Source: a virus. Taken from it: 64,000 nt of DNA. Positions 6,389-32,545 of the stretch are shown piece after piece (position 1 is the first letter of the stretch; each line of letters starts with the position of its first letter). The notes under the pieces are model-generated. The model worked only from the letters and a program-made list of their open reading frames with translations, was not told the DNA's origin and searched no databases. The stretch lies in the IMG/VR virus record IMGVR_UViG_3300044620_001904, positions 31,262 to 95,261 of that record; one strand, written 5' to 3'. The translations under genes and the position numbers were made by a program.

Positions 6389-8428
6389 ATGAACGAGACA
6401 ATGGATGACGGACCGTCACAAAGAAAAAAATCTGAAAACGATCACGGTACTCCTGTACTAGATAACTTTTCAAAAGATTTAATAAAATACGCAGAAGAAG
6501 GTAAATTAGACCCTGTTATTGGTAGAGATAAAGAAATTTTGAGAATCGCTCAAATTTTATCCCGAAGAAAAAAAAATAACCCCATTATAATTGGTGAGCC
6601 TGGTTGCGGAAAGACCGCAATTGTAGAGGGTTTAGCCATGAAAATTCAACAAGGTGAATGTCCGAGAAATTTATTAGATAAAAGGATTGTTCTTTTGGAC
6701 ATGACATCAATTGTTGCCGGAACAAAATATCGTGGTCAATTTGAAGAAAGGATGAAAGTTATAATCGAAGAACTTCAATCGCATCCAAATATTATTGTTT
6801 TTATTGATGAAATACATACAATAGTCGGCGCGGGTAATTCGTCAGGATCAATGGACGCATCAAACATATTTAAACCGGCATTGGCAAGAGGTGAAATACA
6901 GTGCATAGGTGCTACCACACTAGATGAATATCGCAAAAACTTTGAGAAAGATGGAGCTTTGGAAAGAAGGTTTCAAAAAGTCATAGTAGATCCATCAACA
7001 AAAGAAGAAACATTACAAATTCTACGAAATTCAAAATCAAAATACGAAGAATATCACAAAGTGATTTTTTCTGACGAAGTTTTAACATTATGTGTTGATT
7101 TGGCAGATAGATATATAACTGACAGAGAATTTCCTGACAAAGCGTTTGATATTATTGATGAAGTAGGGGCAAGAAGTCAAGTTGATGTAAAGATGCCAGA
7201 ATCAATAGAAAAGTTAAAACAAGAGGCTGCAGATATCAAACAATTAAAAATAGATGTTGTCAAAAGACAAAATTACGAACAAGCTGCAGAATTGAGAGAT
7301 AAAGAAAAAAAGGTTTTAAATAGACTAACCATTGAGAAACAAAAATTTGAGGAGGAAATGAACATAAATAAAAAAAATGTTCAAATTGAGTTGGTTTATG
7401 AGGTGGTTTCCAATATGACAAAAATTCCTGTTGGAAAATTAAACATTGATGACACCAAATCACTTATTAATTTGGAATCAATGATTGAAAGTAAAGTTAT
7501 TGGTCAAACTGAAGCGGTGAGCAAAATCTCAAAAGCTATTAGAAGAAATAGATTAGGAATTAAAGATCCAAATAGACCAATAGGGTCTTTTATCTTCCTA
7601 GGTAGTACTGGGGTGGGTAAAACACATTTGGCAAAACAATTGGCAAGAGAAATTTTCGGAAGCGAAGATTCATTAATTAGGGTTGATATGTCCGAGTTTC
7701 AGGAAAAACATTCAATATCAAGACTAATAGGGTCACCTCCCGGTTATGTTGGTTATGATGAAGGTGGTCAATTAACAGAACAAGTTAAAAACAAACCATA
7801 TTCTGTTGTTTTATTTGATGAAATTGAGAAGGCAAATAAAGACGTATTCTCAACTTTACTTCAAGTTTTAGACGATGGACATTTGACTGATGGACTCGGT
7901 CGTAAAATCAACTTTAAAAATTGTTTGATAATTATGACATCCAATCTTGGTGTAAAAAAAATACAAGATTTTGGAACAGGTATAGGTTTTCAAAAAAAGG
8001 ATTATATTGTTGAAGAACAAAAAAGGGATACACTAAAAAAAGAATTACAGAAATTTTTTGCACCTGAATTTTTAAACCGTATTGATGACATTATCGTATT
8101 TAACACGTTAAAAGAAGAACACGTTAAAGAAATTGTCAAAATTGAAATAGAAAAATTAAAAAGTAGATTATCCAAGATAAAATACAACCTATCATTTGAT
8201 GATACAATTATTGATATGATATCAAAAGTTGGTTTTGATGAAATGTATGGCGCTCGGCCTCTAAAAAGAGCAATACAAGATAAAATTGAGGATCATATTT
8301 CAGAAGAGGTTTTAAAAGGAAATATTTTAACAGATATCCAATATCTTGTTAAATCTGAAGATGATGAAATAAAAATTATTGAAGAAAAAAAACCAAAAAG
8401 GGGTAAATCAAAAAAGGAGGGTGAATAA
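6389..8428 (+). CDS. clpC: ClpC-like AAA+ Clp protease ATPase subunit lacking the N-terminal Clp-repeat domain
   Basis: two Walker A motifs (GEPGCGKT, GSTGVGKT), UVR-type M domain (QNYEQAAELRD), ClpP-docking IGF loop. Confidence 0.85.
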   Translation: MNETMDDGPSQRKKSENDHGTPVLDNFSKDLIKYAEEGKLDPVIGRDKEILRIAQILSRRKKNNPIIIGEPGCGKTAIVEGLAMKIQQGECPRNLLDKRIVLLDMTSIVAGTKYRGQFEERMKVIIEELQSHPNIIVFIDEIHTIVGAGNSSGSMDASNIFKPALARGEIQCIGATTLDEYRKNFEKDGALERRFQKVIVDPSTKEETLQILRNSKSKYEEYHKVIFSDEVLTLCVDLADRYITDREFPDKAFDIIDEVGARSQVDVKMPESIEKLKQEAADIKQLKIDVVKRQNYEQAAELRDKEKKVLNRLTIEKQKFEEEMNINKKNVQIELVYEVVSNMTKIPVGKLNIDDTKSLINLESMIESKVIGQTEAVSKISKAIRRNRLGIKDPNRPIGSFIFLGSTGVGKTHLAKQLAREIFGSEDSLIRVDMSEFQEKHSISRLIGSPPGYVGYDEGGQLTEQVKNKPYSVVLFDEIEKANKDVFSTLLQVLDDGHLTDGLGRKINFKNCLIIMTSNLGVKKIQDFGTGIGFQKKDYIVEEQKRDTLKKELQKFFAPEFLNRIDDIIVFNTLKEEHVKEIVKIEIEKLKSRLSKIKYNLSFDDTIIDMISKVGFDEMYGARPLKRAIQDKIEDHISEEVLKGNILTDIQYLVKSEDDEIKIIEEKKPKRGKSKKEGE

Positions 8429-20700: not shown

Positions 20701-21453
20701 TTAATCCGTTATTTTTACAACTTCATCACCTAAAAGTTCTTTAACTTCTCTATAACAATTAAGTTCTGGTAACCAAATTCTATGGTTACCTGTTAGTTTA
20801 AGAATTTTACCTGAAATTAATTCAATTTCATACCAATCATTATTATTTTTTTGTACTGAGTGAGAATTTATGGTGTTCATTTCGTTTTTGTTTTCAAAAA
20901 CATTAAAACTCAAAACTTTACCAATATATTTAGTTTCACAAATTTCTTTGATTGTTTTAATACCATCTTCAGTTATTAATTCGGTTTCTTCAGATAAACA
21001 TCTCACCTCGTCGGTTTTAGATATAAATGATGGAAACAAACCTTTTACCTTACCAGCAAGTTCTGCCGGAATTGGAGGCTCGTATTTATTAATCCCCAAC
21101 ATCATAGTTACATCCATACCAACCTTAAAATCTAAGTTAGTGTAATTAATTAACGATAAAGGTAAAATCAAACCTTGACTAACCTGTCCGCGAAGTTTTA
21201 CGGTTCTCAAACGAAAACCTTCAGAACCGTCGGCCATCTTTTTATATGATGATTTTCGCAAAAATTCGAATTCAGGTTTAATAGGTAAAAATGAGTCAAT
21301 TTCGCAATAAACTACTTTGTCACCAACTTTGTGACCTACATCTTTTGCAACAACTACTTTCCATCCATCAACGATGGCCAATTCTATTTTATCAGCACCC
21401 TCAATTGGGCGCAAATCAGATATAATTCTAATACTTGCTAATTTTCTTTCCAT
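20701..21453 (-). CDS. N-terminal half of DRB0094-type RNA ligase fused to an N-intein (99 aa)
   Basis: RKLASIR..PIEGADKIE..LRGQVSQGL..KTDEVR|CLSEET..LTGNHRIW (intein blocks A and B). Confidence 0.9.
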   Translation of the reverse strand: MERKLASIRIISDLRPIEGADKIELAIVDGWKVVVAKDVGHKVGDKVVYCEIDSFLPIKPEFEFLRKSSYKKMADGSEGFRLRTVKLRGQVSQGLILPLSLINYTNLDFKVGMDVTMMLGINKYEPPIPAELAGKVKGLFPSFISKTDEVRCLSEETELITEDGIKTIKEICETKYIGKVLSFNVFENKNEMNTINSHSVQKNNNDWYEIELISGKILKLTGNHRIWLPELNCYREVKELLGDEVVKITD

Positions 21454-21458
21454 TTTTT

Positions 21459-21833
21459 TTAAATTTTTTCAGTAAATAAACCATCTTTTATTGCCAAATC
21501 AAACATCTCTAAGATATCTTTATAAAATAGTTCATATTTCAAAATTTCAAGCTCACCTTCTTTTTCAATATCAATGTCATCAAACCATTCGGGTTTTAAG
21601 TCATATAGATTAATATTATCTTTTACCGCATGTTTTAAAACAGGATAAAACTCATTCAACAACCATTTAGTATTATCCCAAATAAATTCATATGAAAAAC
21701 CACCATTAGAGTTCTTACGATTGACGCAATTAAAAGAACGATTATAAAAATTACCATCATTATCAACCAATGCCGATAATTCAAATTGAATATATTCAAT
21801 TTGTTCTGAGCAATATTTAACTACTTTAAACAT
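21459..21833 (-). CDS. hypothetical protein
   Basis: 124-aa ORF in operon. Confidence 0.55.
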   Translation of the reverse strand: MFKVVKYCSEQIEYIQFELSALVDNDGNFYNRSFNCVNRKNSNGGFSYEFIWDNTKWLLNEFYPVLKHAVKDNINLYDLKPEWFDDIDIEKEGELEILKYELFYKDILEMFDLAIKDGLFTEKI

Positions 21834-21915
21834 TTTATAAAAAATCGATTTTCATCCCACAAACTAAATATTTGTCGGTTTTTCGGTGGGGTTATATAAA
21901 ATTAATTGATAATTT

Positions 21916-22053
21916 CTAATTATCAAAATCATCTGAACGGAATTTTCCTTTTTTGTCCTGATTTTTTTTGTTTGACTTGTTTTTGTTGTGATTACCGTTT
22001 GAACTCTTAGATTTCGGCATATCACCTTTCTGATTACGATACGTTTTACCCAT
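21916..22053 (-). CDS. small basic peptide MGKTYRNQKGD...DDFDN (45 aa; not in ORF track)
   Basis: ATG abuts the stop of the upstream gene; translated by hand. Confidence 0.5.
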   Translation of the reverse strand: MGKTYRNQKGDMPKSKSSNGNHNKNKSNKKNQDKKGKFRSDDFDN

Positions 22054-22298
22054 TAGTATTTTGTAACTGAATAATTTCCACAAACAATTTGTTCATTATC
22101 AAATATATCATTAAAGAAAATACAACCACTTTCTTGTTTGATAATGTTTTTTGCCTGATAACACCTTCCTATTTCGTTTGAAGTTATTTCATAATAAGTC
22201 TTGTTTGAACTTATATTTGTATTAAAAATAAAATTCATCGCAAATATTAGAACAATTGAAACTATAACAAATATTGAGTTTTTTTTCAAACCGAGCAT
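22053..22298 (-). CDS. small membrane-anchored protein
   Basis: N-terminal hydrophobic helix. Confidence 0.5.
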   Translation of the reverse strand: MLGLKKNSIFVIVSIVLIFAMNFIFNTNISSNKTYYEITSNEIGRCYQAKNIIKQESGCIFFNDIFDNEQIVCGNYSVTKY

Positions 22299-22312
22299 TT
22301 TTTTACAAAAAT

Positions 22313-22549
22313 CTAAAACTTTACCAAAAAGTCAATATGTGCAAAACCTTTATTTGTATGAACTGTAATTTCATTTTCATCAATTCTAGGCTCAAAACTC
22401 AAAATTGTTGCAAAACCAGCTTCTTTATCTTCATGTCTTACAACTTCTCCTACGGTAAAAATATTACCATATGAATTTATAGCTGTGTTATTATCAACAG
22501 ATATGAAATTTTGTCTTTTTGATATATTTTCCATGTTAACCAACAACAT
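22313..22549 (-). CDS. hypothetical protein
   Basis: ORF in operon. Confidence 0.5.
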   Translation of the reverse strand: MLLVNMENISKRQNFISVDNNTAINSYGNIFTVGEVVRHEDKEAGFATILSFEPRIDENEITVHTNKGFAHIDFLVKF

Positions 22550-23204
22550 TTTTTAATTCATCAGTATGGTGATCAAACTCCATATCTGAAATGATATTAC
22601 GTTTAATCATAATCGGAATAATCTCTTCAATTAAATTATAAGGTCTAAATTCTGTGGAACCATCAATACCAACATCCATTTTGCGACCTTTACCAAATTT
22701 TTTGTGGTTTGGTAAATGAACATGCCCGTGAAGATGGATCACACCTTTATTTAAACCATTCCAAGATGAGAGGGGGTAGTGCATTAAAACAAATTTTTTA
22801 CCACCAACAGATAATTCAACATAATCATTTACGCTTTTAAATAATCCTTTACACCCACCTCTATTTCTTTCAATGTTATGATCGTGATTACCTAAAATCA
22901 AATGTATGTTTTTACAAACAATTCTATCCCAAAAATTACGAATGTTCTCAAAACCTCCAAAAGACCAATCACCAAGATGAAATAAAATATCATCTTGATT
23001 AACAAATTCATTAATATTATTGACAATAGATGCATTCATACTATCTATGGATTCAAAATCTCTAGTCTGATCAATAGGAATTGATCCATCGTTTAACCTC
23101 CAATCTGTAACTCCACGACAAATATTTTTGTGCCCATAATGAGTATCTGAGGTGATCCAAATATTTTGAGATGAACTTGATAGTTCTATTTTAATACTAC
23201 TCAT
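22536..23204 (-). CDS. calcineurin-like metallophosphoesterase
   Basis: SDTHYGH, HLGD, GNHD, HGHVH. Confidence 0.9.
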   Translation of the reverse strand: MSSIKIELSSSSQNIWITSDTHYGHKNICRGVTDWRLNDGSIPIDQTRDFESIDSMNASIVNNINEFVNQDDILFHLGDWSFGGFENIRNFWDRIVCKNIHLILGNHDHNIERNRGGCKGLFKSVNDYVELSVGGKKFVLMHYPLSSWNGLNKGVIHLHGHVHLPNHKKFGKGRKMDVGIDGSTEFRPYNLIEEIIPIMIKRNIISDMEFDHHTDELKNVVG

Positions 23205-23242
23205 AGATTACAAAGGTATAAAAAAATTTTAAAAAAACAAAA

Positions 23243-23650
23243 TCAAAATTGAAATTGTTCAAATGCTTTTAAGTATGATGAAATATTTTCAGCCCCTACC
23301 GGATTCATTGAATGGACGACAAATTTTGGTAATTTTAAACTATTATCTAAGCAATAATCAACCAACCATTTGGCACAATCTAAACCTGTTTTTTCTTTAA
23401 AAGATTTTGACATGTCATCATAATTTGTCAAATACAATGATTGATCATAATGTTCGTCAGCAAGATCGTGATCAAATGAAATTAAATAAGGTAATCCATT
23501 TGTTGATATGTAGTTAACAAATTCATCGTAGTTTTTAACCACAATCCATTCTTCTCGGGTATACATTGCAGAATCCTCGGTTCTTAACCTCATATATGAA
23601 ACGCAATGATCAGGATTTCTGAAATCGTCTAAAAATAAGTAAGTTTTCAT
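23243..23650 (-). CDS. cyclic-phosphate-processing receiver-like domain protein
   Basis: LFLDDFR..ISFDHDL..TGLDCAKWL..VHSMNPVG. Confidence 0.7.
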   Translation of the reverse strand: MKTYLFLDDFRNPDHCVSYMRLRTEDSAMYTREEWIVVKNYDEFVNYISTNGLPYLISFDHDLADEHYDQSLYLTNYDDMSKSFKEKTGLDCAKWLVDYCLDNSLKLPKFVVHSMNPVGAENISSYLKAFEQFQF

Positions 23651-23676
23651 ATTACAAAGATAGTAAAAAAATGATG

Positions 23677-23761
23677 CGGAGAACAGAGGAATCGAACCTC
23701 ACACAAAATTTGTGCGTCATTCTTAGCAGGAAGGCCCCATCGCCATCAGGGATTATTCTCC
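23677..23761 (-). tRNA. tRNA-Ser(GCT)
   Basis: cloverleaf with long variable arm, CT-GCT-AA loop. Confidence 0.85.
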
Positions 23762-23767
23762 GTATTG

Positions 23768-23840
23768 TTGTTTAGGAGGGAATCGAACCCCCACCTTAGC
23801 GTCCGTTGCGCTAAATTCTAATCCATTAAACTACTAAACA
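23768..23840 (-). tRNA. tRNA-Arg(ACG)
   Basis: TAGCG-CAACGGA-CGCTA arm (A at position 33). Confidence 0.75.
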
Positions 23841-24130
23841 ATAAATCCAACAATTTGGTTTTTTTCACTTTTATATTGTGTTAAAAGCATAAGTTCGGTA
23901 ACTTCATCTTTAGTGCAGTATCCTTGAACATCTTCTTGCCAACTTGTCCAAACTTCAAAAGTGGTTTCACCATCACCATAAAGACCAGTTCCTCCTCCAA
24001 CGACAGATATTGCATGGCCATTTGGAAATTCCATAACCGCATGAATGGCTCCCACATTAAAATAGTTACGATGCGGTTTGAAAACCAAATCATCAAATGT
24101 TTTTACTTTATATTTTTCAAAAAAATCCAT
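23834..24130 (-). CDS. hypothetical protein inside the tRNA array
   Basis: 98-aa ORF between tRNAs. Confidence 0.6.
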   Translation of the reverse strand: MDFFEKYKVKTFDDLVFKPHRNYFNVGAIHAVMEFPNGHAISVVGGGTGLYGDGETTFEVWTSWQEDVQGYCTKDEVTELMLLTQYKSEKNQIVGFIV

Positions 24131-24163
24131 AATATATTTTTTTAAATTGTTGGTATAATTTTG

Positions 24164-24246
24164 TGAGTAAGGTAGGATTCGAACCTACACGAATTTCTCC
24201 ACCGGCTTCTAAGGACGGCGCGTTCTACCAGTTTCGCCACTTACTC
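24164..24246 (-). tRNA. tRNA-Leu(TAG)
   Basis: CT-TAG-AA loop, variable arm, A73. Confidence 0.8.
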
Positions 24247-24254
24247 AATTTTTG

Positions 24255-24329
24255 GGTGTTGTATGGGATTTGAGCCCATGACCTTCTGAACCACAATCAG
24301 ACGTTCTCACCAACTGAACTAACAACACC
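24255..24329 (-). tRNA. tRNA-His(GTG)
   Basis: TT-GTG-GT loop; G-1 and C73. Confidence 0.85.
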
Positions 24330-24334
24330 ATATT

Positions 24335-24422
24335 TGGCGGAAAAGAGAGGTGTCGATCCCCACACCACGAAGGTGCCACTAGTTTTCAAGACTAGGTTTA
24401 GCGCCGGCTAAATTTCTCTTCC
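24335..24422 (-). tRNA. tRNA-Ser(TGA)
   Basis: CT-TGA-AA loop, long variable arm, encoded CCA. Confidence 0.85.
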
Positions 24423-24430
24423 ATTTGTTG

Positions 24431-24503
24431 TGGAACAGAAAAGAATCGAACTTTTATTGCTCGCTCTTCATGCGAGTGCCTTGACCAACTAGGCTACTGT
24501 TCC
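24431..24503 (-). tRNA. tRNA-Phe(GAA)
   Basis: CTCGC-ATGAAGA-GCGAG. Confidence 0.8.
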
Positions 24504-24535
24504 ATATATTTTACAAATATACAAAAAATATTTCG

Positions 24536-24608
24536 TACCGCCAACAAGAATCGAACTTGTAATTAAACCTTATGAGAGTTCCGTGATAAACCGTTTCACT
24601 ATGGCGGC
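24536..24608 (-). tRNA. tRNA(CAT), Met or Ile2
   Basis: CT-CAT-AA loop. Confidence 0.8.
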
Positions 24609-24614
24609 ATTTAG

Positions 24615-24686
24615 AGCACCATGAGAATTTTGAAATCTCGACTTCTAGTTTGGAAGACTAGCGCTCTGCCTCTGAGCTAATGATGC
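24615..24686 (-). tRNA. tRNA-Gly(TCC)
   Basis: CT-TCC-AA loop, U73. Confidence 0.85.
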
Positions 24687-24693
24687 TTTTATG

Positions 24694-24777
24694 TTACCGG
24701 GGTAGGGTTCGAACCTACACAGGGATTTCTCCCAACAGATCCAAAATCTGCTCGCTTGCCAATTTGCATACCCGGCA
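24694..24777 (-). tRNA. tRNA-Gln(TTG) with long variable arm
   Basis: GCAGA-TTTTGGA-TCTGT; extra arm GGGA-GAAA-TCCC. Confidence 0.7.
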
Positions 24778-24920
24778 ATTTTGATGAGTCACGGACTTGT
24801 GTACCGTATGTCCCCCTTTAAATTATTCACTAACCCAGGGTGTGGGGAAACTCATCATAATAACCCCCTTGATCGGATTAACGGACCGACTGCCATATCG
24901 GAAGTGGGGGTTAGACTCCG

Positions 24921-25007
24921 TAGTCCTGGTCGGATTCGAACCGACACGGGCTTCTCAGCCCAACAGATTTTAAGTCTGTCGCGTCCTACCAATTTCGCCA
25001 CAGGACC
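24921..25007 (-). tRNA. tRNA-Leu(TAA)
   Basis: CT-TAA-AA loop, long variable arm. Confidence 0.9.
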
Positions 25008-25209
25008 ATATAAAACACCCTAATTTATCCAACTTACAGGTGTTGCGGTTGTCCTCATTTCTGAGTTAGGAATAGTCATTTGTCCTTACGAGGTCGAGTT
25101 GACTTGCTCTGAAGTTATCCCCCTCCACTCCAATGTAGGTTCCCATACGGCGATCAAACCGTTTTTCATCGTATTGGGCGTACTATCCGTTGTCGTGTTT
25201 CGGAACGTG

Positions 25210-25760
25210 TAGTCAGGACAGGATTCGAACCTGTATGGGTTTTTGAGACATCACTTCCTCTCGGTGTTCCACCCAGTTTATTTCAACTTGCGTCTACCAA
25301 TTCCGCCACCTGACTATTCGTTATTTCATTTTTTGTACTTCTTCAATTAACTCAATAAACATTGATTTTGTTATATGTTCCTGCTTTACCCACATATAAA
25401 TTACCCCCATTCTTTCGTGGTAATCTTTTTTAACTTGTAATTTTTCAATCAAATCTTTTATCATAACCTCGTATTTTATTTTGTAGTCAGGACAGGATTC
25501 GAACCTGTAATGATATGCCCCGCACATATCTGGATGGTCTAGAATTAGTTGTATAATTCGGAATTCACCACAATGTTACCAATTACACCACCTGACTATT
25601 TGAGGATGAGAAGTCCTCTGTGTTGTAAGTTTTAGAACCAAAGGAACCGCACTCATCCATCCTTTCTCAAGGGAACAACAAATTAGTAGTCAGGATTGGA
25701 CTCGAACCTGTTTTTCCTCCTTCCCTTTGTCGGAAGTTGTGCTCCTTACACCACCTGACT
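25210..25760 (-). repeat. three tRNA-like shells (25210-25315, 25484-25597, 25687-25760) with identical AGTCAGG acceptor stems and unrelated central inserts
   Basis: AGTCAGGTGG..(variable)..ACAGGTTCGA.TCC..TCCTGACTA occurs three times. Confidence 0.75.
25321..25464 (-). CDS. small hypothetical protein MIKDLIEKLQ... (47 aa) between tRNA-like shells
   Basis: 3' part of the track ORF; the 5' extension overlaps a tRNA-like element. Confidence 0.5.
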   Translation of the reverse strand: MIKDLIEKLQVKKDYHERMGVIYMWVKQEHITKSMFIELIEEVQKMK

Positions 25761-25975
25761 ATTCACCCCACCTTGAGATTTGAGGTGAGTAGTTATTTCG
25801 GTTTTCTATTTCTTAAAAACCTGCGGGGCGTCCCCCATTAAAACAGCCAACACTACTGGGAGAGATTGTGTCAGTCCCTTTATCCCACGATGTCCCACTC
25901 TAGCCGTAGACATTCTGCTAGTCCATTGTTAAATGAGTCTTGGACAAAAGACTGCTGAGTATCTCTTACTCATTG

Positions 25976-26063
25976 TGGGTAGGGAGGGACTCGAACCCCC
26001 GATGTTGTGTCTAAAGACCTTTGATTTACAGTCAAAGCCGTTCGCCGCTACGGTAACCTACCC
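25976..26063 (-). tRNA. tRNA-Tyr(GTA)
   Basis: CT-GTA-AA loop, variable arm. Confidence 0.9.
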
Positions 26064-26169
26064 GACGATAAAATAGGAAAATAGAAGATGGGCGCGTGGA
26101 CATCTATTTTTATGATTAGCATTACTATAAACACCTCCACCAAAATGGTATTCCCTAATCAACCTATTG

Positions 26170-26243
26170 TACCCCCTCTAAGAATCGAACTTAGGACATA
26201 TTGCTTGTAAAACAATCACTCTTAACCACTGAGTTAAGGGGGT
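26170..26243 (-). tRNA. tRNA-Val(TAC)
   Basis: TT-TAC-AA loop. Confidence 0.85.
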
Positions 26244-26249
26244 GTATTG

Positions 26250-26322
26250 CGTACCTCCAAGGATTCGAACCCTGAACAAACGGGTTGGAACCGTTTATGA
26301 TAAACCATTTCACCAGAGATAC
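26250..26322 (-). tRNA. tRNA-Trp(CCA)
   Basis: AACGG-TTCCAAC-CCGTT, G73. Confidence 0.8.
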
Positions 26323-26328
26323 GTATTG

Positions 26329-26401
26329 AGAGCAGTGAGGGATTCAAACCCCCGTGTTTCTCCTTTGCAGGGAGTTGCCTAATCGCTCGAGCCAACTGCT
26401 C
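26329..26401 (-). tRNA. tRNA-Cys(GCA)
   Basis: CT-GCA-AA loop, U73. Confidence 0.85.
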
Positions 26402-26406
26402 TTATG

Positions 26407-26481
26407 TCTTCAGGGGCGGGCTCGAACCGCCGACCTCTTGGATATCAGCCAAGGATTCTAAACCAACTGAACTACCTGAAG
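26407..26481 (-). tRNA. tRNA-Ile(GAT)
   Basis: CT-GAT-AT loop. Confidence 0.85.
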
Positions 26482-26487
26482 ATTATG

Positions 26488-26561
26488 TAGTGAGGATGGG
26501 ACTTGAACCCATGACTGCATGTGTATAAGACATGTATTCTAACCAACTGAATTACCTCACT
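26488..26561 (-). tRNA. tRNA-Ile(TAT)
   Basis: CATGT-CTTATAC-ACATG. Confidence 0.8.
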
Positions 26562-26570
26562 ATAATTAAG

Positions 26571-26644
26571 TGATTCCGGTGGGATTCAAACCCACGTTTA
26601 CCATTTTAAAAGAATGGTGCCTACAATCACTCGGCCACGAAATC
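26571..26644 (-). tRNA. tRNA-Lys(TTT)
   Basis: CT-TTT-AA loop. Confidence 0.85.
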
Positions 26645-26742
26645 ATTTTTTATACCAACAATGTCAAAGAACCTTGTTCTAATCTTTCACAAAGGTAAAT
26701 CAAATTTTTTAATCCAACAAATCTATGTGAAAGATTTTTTTG

Positions 26743-26824
26743 AGGAAAGGGTGGGAATCGAACCCACGTTGAGAATTAACTCGCAGATTAACAGTCTGCT
26801 GCCTGGCCTCTAGGCTACCAATCC
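26743..26824 (-). tRNA. tRNA-Asn(GTT) with long variable arm
   Basis: GCAGA-CTGTTAA-TCTGC; two acceptor mismatches. Confidence 0.75.
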
Positions 26825-26840
26825 ATTTTATATTGTATTA

Positions 26841-27389
26841 CTAAGTGTTTTTTTTCAAAAAATTGTCCCTAAACATATCAACAATTCCAATAATTTCATT
26901 TTTGAATTTTGAATGTATATATAGATGATGTGTTGGACACAAAGGAATCAAATTTTCCGGTGAGTTATTTTTTTTATTACAATCATAATGGTGGATTGCC
27001 ACTATTTTAGATTCACCACATACCACGCATCGTTTTTGGTGATGTTCAAAACCTATTCTACGGTATCCATTTCTTTCTCTATTTTCAACAGAACCGACCC
27101 AATTAGGGTTATTAGGACCACTTCTGAAAAAACTATTTGAGCAAGAATAAGAACAAGTTGTTTTTTCATGTTTATGATTTGTAATAGTAACGAACACATT
27201 ACCACAAATTGGACATTTTTTTTCCAAGTAATCGTATTTAGTTTTTTTCTTTTTCAAATGTGAAATATCTACACTATGAAGTTCTATAAACTCAAAAAAT
27301 TTTTTTCTAGTTTTACCATTATCATAACCATAAATTGATTTTATTGCGTCAGTAATAGTTTGAGAATTTTTTATTATTTCTGTTTCCAT
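26841..27389 (-). CDS. HNH homing endonuclease inserted in the tRNA array
   Basis: CVVCG..IHHYD.N..NNSPENLIPLCPTHH; CPICG zinc motif. Confidence 0.85.
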   Translation of the reverse strand: METEIIKNSQTITDAIKSIYGYDNGKTRKKFFEFIELHSVDISHLKKKKTKYDYLEKKCPICGNVFVTITNHKHEKTTCSYSCSNSFFRSGPNNPNWVGSVENRERNGYRRIGFEHHQKRCVVCGESKIVAIHHYDCNKKNNSPENLIPLCPTHHLYIHSKFKNEIIGIVDMFRDNFLKKNT

Positions 27390-27451
27390 ACATATAAATA
27401 TGTTAGAAATCGTAAAAAACTAATTTGGTCAAACTTTTTCAATACGACAAG

Positions 27452-27524
27452 TAGAGTAGACAGGACTCGAACCTGCACGCACTTGCTCCCAAAGCAAGGG
27501 ACCTTCCAATTGGTCAACTACTCT
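27452..27524 (-). tRNA. tRNA-Pro(TGG)
   Basis: TT-TGG-GA loop. Confidence 0.85.
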
Positions 27525-27580
27525 ATATGAAAAACATAATTTTGTAATTACAACACTTAATAACCAATATTTCAAAGAAC

Positions 27581-27618
27581 AAAAAAAAACCCCGAACTTT
27601 TTACGGTTCAGGGTTTTT
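27581..27618 (-). terminator. attenuator terminator 1, followed by boxA-like GTTCTTTGA
   Basis: ACCCTGAAC-CGTAAAAA-GTTCGGGGT plus U-tract; the 5' arm (CTGAACC) can instead pair with GGTTCAG in the leader ORF. Confidence 0.8.
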
Positions 27619-27638
27619 ATATGATAATTTTAACTATA

Positions 27639-27743
27639 TCAACTTTTAACTACTGAACCAATGAATGTACGAAACATCCCAGGATACCAACAATTACCTT
27701 GTGGTTTCGAACTAATGACGTTATGTAAATTTATTGTTTTCAT
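27639..27743 (-). CDS. putative attenuator leader peptide 1, MKTINLHNVISSKPQGNCWYPGMFRTFIGSVVKS (34 aa)
   Basis: sits between promoter TTTG-N20-TACTTTTG (27795-27764) and the terminator; contains codons for every amino acid served by the downstream tRNA cluster. Confidence 0.75.
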   Translation of the reverse strand: MKTINLHNVISSKPQGNCWYPGMFRTFIGSVVKS

Positions 27744-28158
27744 AGTTTGTTATATAAGTATTACAAAAGTAGTAAAAATATCAATACAAGTCAAATATTT
27801 TTTTCACCACCTAAAATAAATTGTTGCTATTCCTATCGCAAATGTTAAGACTCTACGTTTTTCAGGATGATAAGGAGTTTTTTGATATGAAATACCAATA
27901 TCAAACCACCATTCGCCATCAAAATTGTTCCAAACAAATTCTGTTTTCATGTCTTATCGTTTAATTTTAAAACATTAAAGTTCTAACCAAGTATCCAATT
28001 AATTCATTAAGTAATGCAAAAAAACCAACTATGGATCCAATTCCAAATACCGACATCAATATAAATTGTGTCATAATTGCAAAAGTTGATGGTTCCCTTT
28101 TGAATTGGTTTTTCTTGTAAAATTTTGAAAAAAAAGATGTTTGCATATGGTTTTATTT

Positions 28159-28371
28159 TTAGATTTCGCTCAAATATGATTTCAGGTTAGCAAGTTCAAT
28201 TTTTAATCTTACGATTTCATCGTTTTGCAATTTTATATCTTCCAGTCTTTCCTTTAAAACCTCAAAAGAATAATCGATAATTTGTTGTTCAATTTCGGTC
28301 AAATCTTCTTTTTTTACAAGAATTTTCTCCAAAATAAACTCACAATATTTGTCTTTTTGAGATTTAAACAT
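28159..28371 (-). CDS. hypothetical protein
   Basis: 70-aa ORF with TATCTTTG promoter upstream. Confidence 0.5.
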   Translation of the reverse strand: MFKSQKDKYCEFILEKILVKKEDLTEIEQQIIDYSFEVLKERLEDIKLQNDEIVRLKIELANLKSYLSEI

Positions 28372-28424
28372 TTTGTTTTTTGTTGGGCAAAGATATAACT
28401 TTTATCTATCTCTGCCAAATTTTT

Positions 28425-28658
28425 TTAAAAAATCGTGTGATCCCCAAAGTTATCGTCCCAAGGACAAGGGATGGACTTTCTATCATCATCACGAGTTGGT
28501 TGGATGATATCAGAAATTTCAGATAATATCTGTAAAGCATCCGTTTGAGCATTATCAGATTGGAAGATAGTTTCAGCATAAGGATATTTTTTGAAATAAT
28601 CATCAAGAACATTGATAACTTCAGATTTTTTTTCGGGTGTCCAATTTATTTTATACAT
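28425..28658 (-). CDS. hypothetical protein
   Basis: 77-aa ORF. Confidence 0.5.
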   Translation of the reverse strand: MYKINWTPEKKSEVINVLDDYFKKYPYAETIFQSDNAQTDALQILSEISDIIQPTRDDDRKSIPCPWDDNFGDHTIF

Positions 28659-28672
28659 ATTCTATTTTTGTG

Positions 28673-28758
28673 AGCCAAGGGCCGGATTCGAACCGGCGTG
28701 TGAGTAAACTCATCCTCATTACAAGTGAGGTGCAATCGACCATCTATGCGACCTAGGC
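28673..28758 (-). tRNA. tRNA-Thr(TGT) with long variable arm
   Basis: CT-TGT-AA loop; extra arm TGAGT-TT-ACTCA. Confidence 0.85.
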
Positions 28759-28765
28759 AAATTGT

Positions 28766-28841
28766 TGGTGACCCTGGCACGATTCGAACGTGCGACTGAT
28801 TGCTTAGAAGGCAATTACTCTATCCTCTGAGTTACAGGGCC
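28766..28841 (-). tRNA. tRNA-Arg(TCT)
   Basis: CT-TCT-AA loop, encoded CCA. Confidence 0.9.
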
Positions 28842-28847
28842 TTATAA

Positions 28848-29024
28848 TTATATTTTCTTCACTTCATATCTATGACCACTGTCAGAATTTATCTCCATTA
28901 ATTTTCTTGTGTTTTCTGCGTCTTCAAAAGTTTCAAACTCTAATACTTCCTCATGAGTGTCCAATATAATTACCGGCATCTCTACATTTCTGTCATTTTT
29001 TACAAATTTTACAATTACATACAT
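28848..29024 (-). CDS. small hypothetical protein MYVIVKFVKND... (58 aa; not in ORF track)
   Basis: fills the gap between tRNA-Asp and tRNA-Arg. Confidence 0.55.
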   Translation of the reverse strand: MYVIVKFVKNDRNVEMPVIILDTHEEVLEFETFEDAENTRKLMEINSDSGHRYEVKKI

Positions 29025-29041
29025 AATAATTAGTTTTTTTT

Positions 29042-29116
29042 TGGCGGTCTATAAGGGAATCGAACCCTTACCATATCATAGACAGTGATATATCCTTGCC
29101 GTTAGACGAATAGACC
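29042..29116 (-). tRNA. tRNA-Asp(GTC)
   Basis: CT-GTC-TA loop, G73, encoded CCA. Confidence 0.9.
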
Positions 29117-29176
29117 AATTTTGTTTTACAAAGGTAGTATAAACTTTTCAATTATACAACACATTTATTTTTTTTG

Positions 29177-29252
29177 TGGAGAAGATGGGAATCGAACCCA
29201 CCACAAAAACATTGCAAGTGTTTCTCGCCAAAGCCTTGGTACATGCTCCCCC
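29177..29252 (-). tRNA. tRNA-Ala(TGC)
   Basis: CT-TGC-AA loop, G3.U70. Confidence 0.85.
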
Positions 29253-29263
29253 AAATTATTTTG

Positions 29264-29349
29264 TAGTGCCGATGGGATTCGAACCCACGATTATCCTTTC
29301 GGATTCCAGATTGAAAGTCTGGTAGCCTAAACCACTAGCCGACGGCACC
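29264..29349 (-). tRNA. tRNA-Glu(TTC) with long variable arm
   Basis: CT-TTC-AA loop; extra arm ATCC-GAAA-GGAT. Confidence 0.85.
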
Positions 29350-29388
29350 ATTTATGATACAAAATTACAAAATATATTTCAAAGAACC

Positions 29389-29422
29389 AAAAATAAAAAA
29401 CCCACCTTTTTGGGGTGGGTTT
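29389..29422 (-). terminator. attenuator terminator 2, followed by boxA-like GTTCTTTGA
   Basis: AAACCCACC-CCAAAAA-GGTGGGTTT plus U-tract; CACCCC can instead pair with GGGGTG in the leader ORF. Confidence 0.8.
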
Positions 29423-29445
29423 CAATATTTTAGAAAACTACAATA

Positions 29446-29523
29446 TTATACCACACCCCGTAGAGTAAGTTCTGCTTCCGTTCTATCGGCAGTGGTGATA
29501 TATATGTAGTTCAAATTTTTCAT
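29446..29523 (-). CDS. putative attenuator leader peptide 2, MKNLNYIYITTADRTEAELTLRGVV (25 aa)
   Basis: follows promoter TATCTTTG (29535-29528); core TTADRTEAE matches the downstream Glu/Ala/Asp/Arg/Thr tRNAs. Confidence 0.8.
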   Translation of the reverse strand: MKNLNYIYITTADRTEAELTLRGVV

Positions 29524-29569
29524 AACACAAAGATACAAAGAATTTTTATAAAATCAATACCCTTATCCT

Positions 29570-30091
29570 TTATTTTCTTAATTTAGGTTTAGATTTCATT
29601 TTATCATATATCCTAACGAAATAATAAGGATCTTCCATCACATAACAAAATTCATTCCTTGTTGTCGCGTTAAGGATTTTAACTTCTTTGATCGGATATT
29701 TTGACAATAAATCCATATCTTTGTCGTTATATCTAAACCACATATCAATTCTACATGAAATACCAGGTCTAATATTCCACAAAGCAACGGAATCATTTTC
29801 TAAATAGAATGTAACACGACTTATTCTACTGCAAAAATGATCGTCTTTGTAGGTTAACCTAAATTCGTGTAAATATTGATATTTTTTATCCATATCAACA
29901 TTTGTTATTACCGGTTGGATTTCAAATAACGAATCCGAATGGATATACGGCTTTGGTTGAAGAGGATCGGTCTCGGATCTTTCTTCGTACTTAGCGATGT
30001 GCTCACAGTGAGGACATGGTTTGTCTGTTTCAAATGGTGTGAAAGCCATAAACACCAATAAACAGATTGCGATAATTATAGAAGTTTTCAT
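29570..30091 (-). CDS. secreted hypothetical protein
   Basis: signal peptide; CPHC motif. Confidence 0.55.
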   Translation of the reverse strand: MKTSIIIAICLLVFMAFTPFETDKPCPHCEHIAKYEERSETDPLQPKPYIHSDSLFEIQPVITNVDMDKKYQYLHEFRLTYKDDHFCSRISRVTFYLENDSVALWNIRPGISCRIDMWFRYNDKDMDLLSKYPIKEVKILNATTRNEFCYVMEDPYYFVRIYDKMKSKPKLRK

Positions 30092-30276
30092 ATCTATAAA
30101 TATTTGATTATTTTTAATATTTACATTTTTAAAAAAATATTTATTCTTCTAAATTTTTAATTTCTTTACATTAAAATTACATTAATTTAAAACTAAAAAA
30201 AAGTTATTTGATATTTATTATAGTGACTTTAATTTTTTTTTATTGAAAATTTTATTATATTTGTATCTAATTTGTA

Positions 30277-30789
30277 ATGATTATTAACATGGAAAGAGTT
30301 TTAGTTTTAAATTCTGATTATAGTCCTTTGAACGTAACGACTGTCATTCGTGGTTTTAACTTAGTTAATAAAGGAAAGGCCGAGATATTAAAATCGGGCG
30401 AAAAACCGATAAGTGCTGGTTCATTATCATTTGCTCGCCCTTTGATAATAAGACTATTGGTTTATGTTAAATACAGGGTTAAAAACTTAAAAGTTAATAG
30501 GGCTAGAATTTATAAACGTGATGGTCATAAATGTGTATATTGTGGGGCGAATAAAAATCTTACAATAGACCACGTTTTACCAAAATCTCGTGGTGGAACA
30601 AATAGATGGACTAATTTGGTTACATGCTGCGGTACTTGTAATAGAAAAAAAGGTGATAGAACTCCATATGAAGCAAATATGACTTTAAGTGTAAAACCTT
30701 ATGAACCATCATTGTTTTCTGATGTATTTCATAATCACATAAGTGATCTGTGGGATGAATTCAAACAAACGATGGGGTTGAATTATTGA
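30277..30789 (+). CDS. HNH endonuclease family protein
   Basis: VLVLN.DY.PL..RDGHKCVYCG..TIDHVLPKSRGG..WTNLVTCC..CNRKK. Confidence 0.9.
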   Translation: MIINMERVLVLNSDYSPLNVTTVIRGFNLVNKGKAEILKSGEKPISAGSLSFARPLIIRLLVYVKYRVKNLKVNRARIYKRDGHKCVYCGANKNLTIDHVLPKSRGGTNRWTNLVTCCGTCNRKKGDRTPYEANMTLSVKPYEPSLFSDVFHNHISDLWDEFKQTMGLNY

Positions 30790-30904
30790 TTCACAAATAT
30801 ACCAAAAACAAAAGAGAGTCCGAAAACTCTCTTTTGTTAGATTTGGAACACCCCCTTTTTTTAGATGTTTATACTAAACAGGACTCTCGTCCCGAAAAGT
30901 CAAT

Positions 30905-32545
30905 TTACTTACTTAAAGCCTTTGATTTCATTTCTTTAGCTTTATTTTCCATTTTATCTTTAATACCTCCTAATATTGAACATACACTTCCTGATATTGA
31001 TGATTGTATGCTTTTCATAAATGATTGCTCATAAAGTAAATCTGTTAAAGAGTTTCTAACAGCATCAGGAACGATACCACTTGCAACATACTTATCACCT
31101 AAAGAACCAATAATCGATTCTACGATGCTTTTTGAAAGTAACTCGCTTACATAATTGCAATCTGTAAATAGTTTTGGTATATCAGAAAAAGATTGAATGT
31201 TACCTAAAGATGTAATGAATAATCTTCCAATAGCGCTTTTTGGATTTAAACCTAGTTTCGATAATAGAGTTTTAACCGCAAATTCAACCAAAGTACCTCT
31301 TAAAGTACCCATTAGATTTTTTTTAACACCTGATCCACCAAATATACCACTCAATAAATTAACAAAAGACTCCATCTCACTTAATATTACCTTATTATCA
31401 AAACCAACTTCACGTAACTTTATTGTCTCTACTAAAAAATCTAAAAATGAAATTTCAATATTATTATGTAATTTTGAAGATTCTATAATTAAATTAAAAC
31501 GGTTTTTAATTATTGATTGCTCAACCAAAAATGATTTTTTATTTTCTTTCATTTCCAAAAGATTTTTCTTCACGGTTTTTGATAAATTTGATTCTTGCAA
31601 TGAATATTTTTTATTTGAATCTTTACTCAAATTATTTATAATTTCTAAATTTTTTAATGTACCAAAAGAAAATTTGTGAATTTTATCGCATCTTTGAATC
31701 AATTGTTTGGCCGTCAATAACATTGCAGAATTTCCAACCGGATAATCGTTACTAATCGCATTTGCATAATTATTAATTAATTTGCGACAATATGATTTCT
31801 GTGGATTTGCCAGATTTTTCCGAAAATTATCCTTCTCAGTATTAAGATAATCATTCCATTGATTAGAATTTCCTGATTCACTGAAATCTATTTTTTGTAC
31901 TAAACAAAAATCTGTAGTAAATACTGATGGATATTTTTGTTTTAGATTAACAATAGGACCCGCAAAATCATCAGTGTCTTGAGTTTTACAATCTATTACA
32001 GTATAACCGGCACCTGTAAATTTGGCGATAATAGGATCTTGTTCAGAAGAAATTGGTGTCAATTCTGTTTTTTTTAAATAAAGAAAATCTTTTCCTGGTT
32101 GTGGAAATGCGTCAGGGTTTCCATATTCAGGATGTGAATTAAGGTCTATTTTTTCATATTTTCCTGCTCTGATATCCACCTCTGACACATTTTCAGGACT
32201 TACGATACCCTGATTTCTTTTCATCACCGCGGCAATATGTTGGTTTTGTTTTTCTTTTAAAGGTGTTATTTTATTTTGATCGGTAACATCAGGAGTGGTT
32301 AAAGCTTCGCAAGACCATCTTTTTTTTACTTTTGTTACTGCGTTTATAACTATTCCATCATCAAAAAACAATATACTTTCGTTTTTTCCATTCTTACCCG
32401 ATATAACCAATTTACCTGATTTAGTTTTTTTTGGTTGTCTTCCAGTATCTTTGGTAAACCATTTGTAGTTATCGAAACATTTTTTTTGGTCGGCAACCAC
32501 TAAATCTATTTCTTTTTGTGACTGCTCATTAATATTTTTTTTCAT
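30905..32545 (-). CDS. hypothetical protein
   Basis: 546-aa ORF. Confidence 0.6.
   Translation of the reverse strand: MKKNINEQSQKEIDLVVADQKKCFDNYKWFTKDTGRQPKKTKSGKLVISGKNGKNESILFFDDGIVINAVTKVKKRWSCEALTTPDVTDQNKITPLKEKQNQHIAAVMKRNQGIVSPENVSEVDIRAGKYEKIDLNSHPEYGNPDAFPQPGKDFLYLKKTELTPISSEQDPIIAKFTGAGYTVIDCKTQDTDDFAGPIVNLKQKYPSVFTTDFCLVQKIDFSESGNSNQWNDYLNTEKDNFRKNLANPQKSYCRKLINNYANAISNDYPVGNSAMLLTAKQLIQRCDKIHKFSFGTLKNLEIINNLSKDSNKKYSLQESNLSKTVKKNLLEMKENKKSFLVEQSIIKNRFNLIIESSKLHNNIEISFLDFLVETIKLREVGFDNKVILSEMESFVNLLSGIFGGSGVKKNLMGTLRGTLVEFAVKTLLSKLGLNPKSAIGRLFITSLGNIQSFSDIPKLFTDCNYVSELLSKSIVESIIGSLGDKYVASGIVPDAVRNSLTDLLYEQSFMKSIQSSISGSVCSILGGIKDKMENKAKEMKSKALSK

Follow-up and report, generated by a model that had tools for sequence, protein, structure and literature searches.

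We analysed a window of 64,000 nucleotides (nt), positions 31,262 to 95,261 of IMG/VR virus record IMGVR_UViG_3300044620_001904, in which a large cluster of tRNA genes is preceded by a promoter, a short leader open reading frame (ORF), an intrinsic terminator and a boxA-like motif. The window is part of that single record, which comprises 95,261 bp with 31% G+C and belongs to a lake phage with a Bacteroidota-type host; near-identical DNA is present in lake-water metagenomes from several years, and no RNA run with this DNA was found. The RNA genes of the window are 24 tRNAs called by ARAGORN, a transfer-messenger RNA (tmRNA) and a GOLLD RNA, and its phage genes include those for an HNH endonuclease, a tail/lysis protein, a phosphoesterase and an FtsH-like protease. 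The large cluster consists of 19 tRNA genes by ARAGORN and runs on the minus strand from 27524 down to 23676, with small ORFs separating some of its genes. Coordinates are those of the window, and the positions of the features are collected in Table 1.

Upstream of the cluster, a pattern scan recovers the promoter that a preliminary description of this DNA had proposed, TTTG-N20-TACTTTTG, with its -33 and -7 elements of the Bacteroidota type; the ATG of the leader lies 20 nt downstream of the -7 box, and the general pattern TTTG-N17-22-TAnnTTTG is over-represented in the window, with 20 sites where 6.75 would be expected. The leader that follows has all of its 17 residue types within codons 1-25, that is, upstream of the point at which a stalled ribosome would still leave exposed the segment near the ORF's 3' end that we call region 2, and its last eight codons bring nothing new. 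The terminator was also found where it had been described, with its 5' arm at 27618-27606, its 3' arm at 27597-27585 and its U-run at 27589-27581, and its hairpin has a predicted energy of about -18 kcal/mol. Sub-threshold Rfam matches to ohsC (36 bits) and Thr_leader (26 bits) on 27580-27650 were set aside as reflecting the shape of the terminator only. A neighbouring ORF of 77 amino acids has no relatives in IMG/VR.

Two further promoters had been proposed inside the cluster. One of them, at 26721-26690, is a full promoter pattern and is followed by the boxA-like GTTCTTTGACATT (26672-26660) ahead of tRNA-Lys; the other, at 24521-24514, consists of a -7 box only. Because the unit at tRNA-Lys has neither a leader nor a terminator, it is probably a constitutive entry point.

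Leader composition and the downstream tRNA sets

The leader peptide contains 17 residue types and lacks only Ala, Asp and Glu; it covers 16 of the 16 amino acids served by the large cluster, and 31 of its 33 residues fall within that set. The presence of a 34-codon leader with 17 amino acids, as originally described, is correct, although such diversity is not rare in itself, since 6.6% of the ATG ORFs of 30-38 codons in this genome reach at least 17 residue types. The partition is another matter. For a 33-residue peptide of phage proteome composition, covering all 16 cluster amino acids has a probability of P=0.0017, the absence of Ala, Asp and Glu one of P=0.002, and full coverage together with that absence one of P=2.75e-5; among the 134 ATG ORFs of 28-40 codons in six frames, a single one combines the two properties, and it is the leader itself. 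The claims that the leader holds every amino acid of the cluster and lacks exactly Ala, Asp and Glu therefore stand, and the composition proves not to be common among random short ORFs. The claim that C-W-Y and G-M-F occur in gene order lacks statistical significance, with 4 matching dipeptides against 2.1 expected (P=0.16).

A companion element precedes the other tRNA cluster, which consists of Glu, Ala, Asp, Arg(TCT) and Thr genes. Its leader of 25 codons is probably leaderless, starting at the transcript's first base, and contains nine consecutive codons, T-T-A-D-R-T-E-A-E, that all belong to the five-tRNA set downstream; a run of nine in-set residues has P about 1e-4. The companion antiterminator, CGGGGTGTGGTA against AACCCACCCCA, has a free energy (ΔG) of -17.1 and a z score of -4.5. 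That the two leaders divide the genetic code between them, as had been suggested, is supported, and phage L058 likewise splits its own tRNAs between two leaders. The further suggestion, that the two leaders of the window together form a full surveillance circuit for the tRNA pool, is no more than an inference.

As a protein, the leader peptide has no detectable relatives, and a degenerate pattern search with its core octapeptide CWYPGMFR gave no match in IMG/VR; the comparison therefore used analogous and partly homologous elements. The search, by BLAST and by patterns in IMG/VR phages, was anchored only on a hairpin, a T-run and the boxA motif, and a hairpin plus T-run plus GTTCTTTRAMAT was found immediately before tRNAs in many of these phages. 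In each case the longest ATG ORF with its stop 40-80 nt upstream of the motif was chosen, no use being made of tRNA identity, and the tRNA set was defined as all same-strand ARAGORN tRNAs until the next such element or a gap of 1.2 kb. Taking all sites of this kind in the loci compared yielded 20 elements, 16 of them non-redundant.

The leader covers the entire downstream tRNA set in 14 of the 16 non-redundant elements (3/3, 6/6, 7/7, 6/6, 7/7, 14/14, 4/4, 10/10, 15/15, 3/3, 4/4, 4/4, 5/5 and 16/16), and the leaders of the other phages match their own tRNA sets, not one another's. When the tRNA sets were permuted among the leaders 20,000 times, the summed Z was 1.8 +/- 5.0 (maximum 22.4) against 38.0 observed, and full coverage was reached by a mean of 4.25 elements (maximum 11) against 14 observed; none of the 20,000 permutations equalled either observed value (P<5e-5). 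The match survives when related leaders are dropped, and also when the window's own two elements are. Individual cases illustrate it: in L058 the first leader, HIQPQPQQHPQ, is followed by tRNAs Pro, His, Pro, His, Gln, Gln, Gln and the second, AVALNAVLLWDAVEDAL, by Asp, Glu, Val, Leu, Ala and Trp tRNAs, in the leader of L077 an uninterrupted stretch of 17 residues uses no amino acid other than H, S, L, R, Q, P and T, the exact tRNA set of that phage, and the 15/15 coverage is that of L163. Of 28 informative Leu, Arg and Ser codons, 23 belong to the codon box that fits an anticodon of the set, a comparison that is a soft test owing to AT-rich codon bias.

The distance from stop codon to boxA is 52-79 nt in all 16 elements, a TAnnTTTG box lies no more than 80 nt upstream of the leader ATG in 11 of them, the start codon is ATG throughout, and Lys is the second residue in 11/16. 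Together with the preserved frame of the natural variant described below, the last two features hint, though only indirectly, at translation of the leaders. Family-wide, in-set residues make up 65% of the leader body and 40% of the six final codons, where the structural strand resides. We also observed that L058 has many duplicated tRNAs and a tmRNA, and that L037 (12500-12560) contains both kinds of unit, promoter-boxA-tRNA without a leader and leader-terminator-boxA-tRNA.

Alternative pairing and the host-type boxA

The complementarity reported between GGTTCAG (27659-27653) in the final leader codons and CTGAACC (27611-27605), which is part of the terminator 5' arm, is confirmed. For each element of the collection we computed the best duplex of the leader with its terminator 5' arm plus loop and compared it with shuffled sequences. 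The mean z score is -2.9, with p<0.05 in 9 of the 16 elements, and in every element the pairing strand of the leader ends no more than 15 nt from the stop codon. The paired sequences themselves vary among phages, being GGTTCAG/CTGAACC in the window, GGAGAGGG/CCCTCTCC in L082 and GGAAGTTGCCCGCTT/AAGCGGGAACTTC in L134. Seven homologous MKNL-type leaders (the MKNLHI subfamily) were aligned, and 92.9% of the cells of their antiterminator helix are paired, against 46-68% in slid controls, and three pairs are altered on both sides; the terminator helix has a compensatory pattern likewise. One column of the 5' arm covaries both with its partner in region 2 and with its partner in the 3' arm, which is what a two-state switch predicts. 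Covariation of this pairing across homologues, which the preliminary description had named as a check, is hence positive at the level of the family, through compensatory changes in the MKNL-type leaders.

Folding of the window's own transcript gives a compatible picture. When the transcript extends up to the terminator loop, its minimum-energy fold pairs GGUUCAG with CUGAACC, and this helix holds without a ribosome as well as with a ribosome masked at codons 8, 14, 19 or 24; with the ribosome placed at the stop codon, the terminator 5' arm is left unpaired. At equilibrium the full transcript adopts the terminator fold, and region 2 is then paired with the transcript's 5' end, while on the truncated transcript the antiterminator prevails also when no ribosome is present.

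A natural variant of the element is provided by a lake-metagenome contig that spans 27574-27765 with 21 differences. Its leader ORF is open, an insertion and a deletion 2 nt apart keeping the frame; both complementary heptamers are intact, and six of the changes lie in the spacer between stop codon and terminator. The peptide is altered at six positions (G16V, R25C, F27S, I28H, V32G and K33I), and such free change fits a leader whose product does not matter. A contig joint that skips the boxA (27528 to 27581) was disregarded, as it has only 20 nt on one side.

Directly after the U-run lies GTTCTTTGA, which is not a spacer but the host-type boxA of Bacteroidota rRNA operons. The boxA consensus of γ-proteobacteria is GYTCTTTAANA (PMC5725501), and GTTCTTTGAAATA fits it except for a G at position 8. 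The 17-mer GTTCTTTGAMATATTGG is present in Bacteroidota genomes, for example those of Pedobacter, Mucilaginibacter, Chitinophagaceae and Flavihumibacter, where 61 of 122 hits lie 250-860 nt past the 16S 3' end, i.e. in the 16S-23S spacer, and 2 of 122 lie 89-179 nt before 16S. In the phage there are two exact and three near copies, all on the sense strand ahead of stable-RNA genes: they precede both tRNA clusters, the tRNA-Lys sub-unit, the tmRNA and the GOLLD RNA. These matches suggest that the motif is a host boxA that the phage has borrowed and that would keep transcription of long untranslated RNAs from ending too early; its position past the regulated terminator means that it cannot override that terminator.

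The tmRNA gene (13488-13880, plus strand; 96.8 bits in Rfam, no call by ARAGORN) is preceded by a Bacteroidota promoter pattern at 13429-13459 and the boxA-like GTTCTTTAAAATA at 13473-13485, with no leader ORF and no terminator. The GOLLD RNA (15097-14698, minus strand; 330 bits in Rfam) has a boxA-like GTTCTTTAAAATA some 470 nt upstream, at 15583-15571, which is probably near the 5' end of the full-length RNA.

The proposed switch, its rivals and the neighbouring genes

We propose that the element is a ribosome-mediated (leader-peptide) transcription attenuator gating the phage tRNA genes, a reading to which we assign a probability of about 0.78. Transcription would start at the promoter of Table 1, and the 34-codon leader would be translated while RNA polymerase advances. 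Fast ribosomes would reach the last codons and the stop codon and cover region 2, whereupon the terminator hairpin (27618-27585) would form and transcription would stop at the U-run. A ribosome delayed at the sensor codons, from codon 2 to about codon 24, which sample all 16 amino acids, would leave region 2 free; region 2 would then pair with the terminator 5' arm as that arm emerges, and the polymerase would read on. The host-type boxA of the read-through transcript would probably recruit Nus factors, sparing the long untranslated tRNA transcript. The outcome would be negative feedback, in which the tRNA set is made when charged tRNAs for the leader codons are scarce and halted when they are plentiful, and the second leader would act alike for its own five tRNAs.

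Several observations weigh against this reading, and the first group concerns the codons. The leader has two Thr codons (ACA), yet tRNA-Thr belongs to the other cluster, and no CTN codon in it matches Leu(TAG), two imperfections that were already on record. Each amino acid is sampled one to four times and without tandem runs, and the leader would respond only weakly to any one tRNA. The sole Arg codon is gone from the natural variant (R25C), whose changes are 6 non-synonymous against 2 synonymous. These points would suit a general sensor of translation speed that is not codon-specific. The ORF and the switch would then be genuine but would register only the total capacity of ribosomes or ternary complexes, for instance once host shut-off has occurred, and the fit to the cluster would be loose and not tuned: the cluster serves 16 amino acids, so that 77% of any peptide falls in the set by chance, single codons give little sensitivity per tRNA, the Thr codons are misplaced, and the variant does without Arg. 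We consider such a sensor improbable, in that the leader avoids exactly A, D and E, small-set leaders elsewhere are sharply specific (QPQPQQHPQ, TTADRTEAE and LRQTSQLSLHTPSLSRP), and the match is destroyed by permuting the tRNA sets among the leaders.

A second group concerns the helices. The duplex of the large-cluster element is in its own right marginal by RNAduplex (ΔG -11.5, z -1.7, p 0.066), and the antiterminator (-11.5 kcal/mol) is far less stable than the terminator (about -18 kcal/mol). The sample of the covariation analysis is small, its structures being derived from the same few related sequences, and an anti-antiterminator (1:2) or a pause hairpin is not established. Leader translation could be imagined to work by another route or in reverse, a close ribosome suppressing Rho or pushing the polymerase so that fast translation gives more tRNA, or the terminated leader serving as a small RNA. 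The direction of the switch follows solely from an assumed ribosome footprint, and the boxA indicates that Rho and Nus biology is relevant at the locus; for the small RNA there is a precedent in Sinorhizobium, where terminated attenuator RNAs reportedly act in trans (PMC6614838). Such schemes nevertheless strike us as very unlikely. With 20 nt between the stop codon and the hairpin, a terminating ribosome cannot cover the stem; the conserved pairing between last codons and 5' arm could be masked by an arriving ribosome, as in trp-type attenuators; and positive feedback on tRNA supply has no obvious use.

The third group concerns ways around the switch. The promoter and boxA at tRNA-Lys can feed tRNA-Lys and all later tRNAs, the -7 box at 24521-24514 lies further inside the cluster, the HNH gene and small ORFs interrupt it, and a promoter pattern at 29391-29360 overlaps the companion boxA and could bypass the companion switch. 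One might regard the leader as an ordinary small gene or a chance ORF that ends at an insulating terminator, with the tRNAs transcribed from their own downstream promoters. Small ORFs are frequent in AT-rich phage DNA, TTTG, which serves as the -33 element in Bacteroidota promoters, occurs within the T-run plus GTTCTTTG, and full promoter patterns do exist at the boxA of the other cluster and at tRNA-Lys. Yet the pattern scan finds no full promoter pattern between 27581 and tRNA-Pro, and in L037, L058 and L060 the first tRNA begins 2-5 nt past the boxA, too close for a promoter of its own to fit, so that those tRNAs must be transcribed through the terminator. For the same reason we gave up, as a general explanation, the idea that the hairpin, T-run and GTTCTTTG represent a terminator with an extended -33 promoter element behind it. 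Chance or an ordinary gene would in addition have to account for the match between leaders and tRNA sets (P<5e-5), for a complementarity of ORF end and terminator that is conserved with compensatory changes, and for a peptide that lacks detectable protein relatives and whose core octapeptide is unmatched in IMG/VR; we hold this explanation to be remote.

The purpose and regulation of phage tRNA genes are debated, the candidates being compensation of codon usage, loss of host tRNAs and escape from anticodon nucleases. In our judgement it is fairly likely that many phages rich in tRNA genes, in Bacteroidota and perhaps also in other hosts, place their tRNA arrays under a demand-driven feedback gated by a leader peptide, which would probe the charged-tRNA pool codon by codon; the phage tRNAs would be induced if the host pool is inadequate or is being cleaved by defences, and the case would be the first of ribosome-mediated attenuation of tRNA genes themselves. 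Searches of the open-access and bioRxiv literature found no account of tRNA genes under leader-peptide attenuation. If the attenuator reading is true, the phage gauges decoding speed for exactly those codons that its tRNAs serve and tunes its tRNA output, classical attenuation extends to tRNA genes as a new class of target, and host-type boxA antitermination signals have been borrowed for the stable RNAs of a phage. It would also yield a rule of annotation, short ORF followed by terminator, boxA and tRNAs, that could be applied to hundreds of small ORFs which lack annotation in the tRNA regions of phages.

Downstream, the tRNA cluster is adjoined by a set of RNA-repair-like genes (17328-23650, minus strand; Table 1). 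Speculatively, such a set fits a phage that faces attacks on the tRNA pool. On the plus strand at 6389-8428 lies the gene of an FtsH-like ATP-dependent protease of 679 amino acids (phrog_4871, E 8e-242), which is unusual for a phage.

The tRNA inventory differs in some details from the list of 19 first given. The cluster is present at 27524-23676, but a weak Leu(CAA)-like gene called by ARAGORN at 25760-25686 had been omitted. Ser(TGA) receives no ARAGORN call; Rfam matches it at 24422-24339 with 44 bits under the tRNA-Sec model, with an anticodon loop CT-TGA-AA. This gene (24339-24422, minus strand) probably specifies tRNA-Ser(UGA); its CCA end is encoded and its T arm is unusual, and in L052 and L077 a gene of the tRNA-Ser(UGA) type stands directly after the boxA. 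Three tRNA-like genes on the minus strand, at 25210-25315, 25484-25597 and 25687-25760, have an acceptor stem and T arm in common (AGUCAGG...CCUGACUA) and unrelated middles, two of them carrying long inserts that bring them to 106 and 114 nt overall; of the three, only the shortest is called by ARAGORN, as Leu(CAA). In the related tRNA clusters of two other phages, ARAGORN reports four-base-anticodon tRNAs (ttaa at L084:6193-6268 and cgaa at L037:8659-8732), which may be frameshift-suppressor-like tRNAs or miscalls. A relative with 97% identity, L001, is a fragment that ends within the tRNA cluster and does not include the leader.

Table 1. Positions of the predicted attenuator elements, the tRNA genes and neighbouring features (window coordinates, except for the last row)
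Feature	Position	Strand	Basis or remark
Promoter, Bacteroidota type: -33 TTTG, 20-nt spacer, -7 TACTTTTG	27764..27795	-	pattern scan
Leader ORF, 34 codons + TGA	27639..27743	-	ORF scan
Region 2 (antiterminator 5' strand), core GGTTCAG at 27659-27653, within leader codons 28-33	27647..27661	-	RNAduplex, folding
Intrinsic terminator: 13-bp stem, 8-nt loop, nine U	27581..27618	-	hairpin folding
boxA-like GTTCTTTGAAATATTGG, directly after U-run	27564..27580	-	motif scan, Bacteroidota rRNA operon comparison
boxA-like GTTCTTTGAAATA	27580-27568	-	motif scan
tRNA-Pro(TGG), first gene past the switch	27451..27524	-	ARAGORN, Rfam
HNH endonuclease ORF, between tRNA-Pro and tRNA-Asn, within the putatively attenuator-controlled unit	26841..27389	-	phrog_1271, 3.9e-13
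Remaining cluster, first part: Asn, Lys, Ile(TAT), Ile(GAT), Cys, Trp, Val, Tyr, Leu(CAA)-like, Leu(TAA) (position of both parts together)	23676..26824	-	ARAGORN, Rfam
Remaining cluster, second part: Gln, Gly, Met, Phe, Ser(TGA)-like, His, Leu(TAG), Arg(ACG), Ser(GCT) (position of both parts together)	23676..26824	-	ARAGORN, Rfam
Internal promoter pattern (26721-26690) and boxA-like GTTCTTTGACATT (26672-26660), ahead of tRNA-Lys	26660..26721	-	pattern scans
Companion attenuator (putative) of the other cluster	29375..29535	-	pattern, folding, composition
Companion -7 box TATCTTTG	29535-29528	-	part of companion
Companion leader, 25 codons	29523-29446	-	part of companion
Companion terminator	29423-29397	-	part of companion
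Companion boxA	29387-29375	-	part of companion
Companion-controlled (putatively) tRNAs Glu, Ala, Asp, Arg(TCT), Thr	29349-28672	-	downstream of companion boxA
cREC_REC cyclic-phosphate-processing receiver domain protein	23650-23243	-	
Metallophosphoesterase	23204-22536	-	
RNA ligase in two pieces	21453-20701 and 19689-19021	-	intein-splicing matches on both
T4 Rnl1-type RNA ligase	18389-17328	-	
Two codon-matched leaders of L058	L058:7854-8007 and L058:13412-13599		

Comparison with known systems

In mycobacteria, polycysteine leaderless short ORFs reportedly attenuate operons (bioRxiv 10.1101/834739). They resemble the phage elements, and the companion leader at 29523 in particular, in that a short sensor ORF at the 5' extreme of the transcript reports amino-acid supply; they differ in sensing a single amino acid, in their mechanism and targets, and in having no control of tRNA genes.

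For the boxA, the relevant system is processive antitermination of the rrn type by boxA and Nus factors, which operates at the E. coli rrn leader and spacer and at lambda nut (PMC5725501, PMC3177189). The phage motif matches the consensus and the host operons, its 17-mer being identical to the Bacteroidota rRNA operon element, and it sits in the sense-strand leaders of untranslated, stable-RNA units; binding of NusB/S10 is predicted. Unlike the rrn element, the motif is carried by a phage, ahead of tRNA, tmRNA and GOLLD genes, and the copy of the large cluster stands directly after a regulated terminator, on which it cannot act.

With T-box riboswitches the phage element shares a choice between terminator and antiterminator in a leader, which reports the state of a specific tRNA pool. 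T-boxes bind uncharged tRNA through a specifier codon and the T-box sequence, without translation, and control genes of synthetases, transport and biosynthesis. The phage element is not a T-box: within 20000-32000 of the window no Rfam match to one was found at E up to 1.

The closest counterparts are the multivalent leader attenuators of enterobacteria, among which thr senses Thr and Ile and ilvGMEDA senses Ile, Val and Leu, alongside trp, his, leu and pheA; the leader-peptide attenuators of enterobacterial amino-acid operons have reportedly been modelled in one published study (PMC1183508). In both, more than one amino acid is sensed, and in both a short 5' leader ORF, which in the phage is predicted to be translated, stands with a promoter just upstream of an intrinsic terminator and has regulatory codons cognate to what the controlled genes supply. 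The terminator 5' arm can alternatively pair with a segment at the 3' end of the ORF, so that, at the level of the family, the helices are mutually exclusive and the antiterminator strand could be masked by a ribosome, and the helix energies are of the same order (antiterminator about -11, terminator about -18 to -20 kcal/mol). Unlike its enterobacterial counterparts, the phage leader probes as many as 16 amino acids, most of them with one or two codons and without tandem runs, and the element is phage-borne, has Bacteroidota-type promoters and carries a boxA after the terminator, with the 1:2 pause hairpin not established. Above all, the classical targets are biosynthesis, transport and synthetase genes, whereas the genes downstream of the phage element are tRNAs, and for this reason we file it as a variant outside the described families of attenuators.

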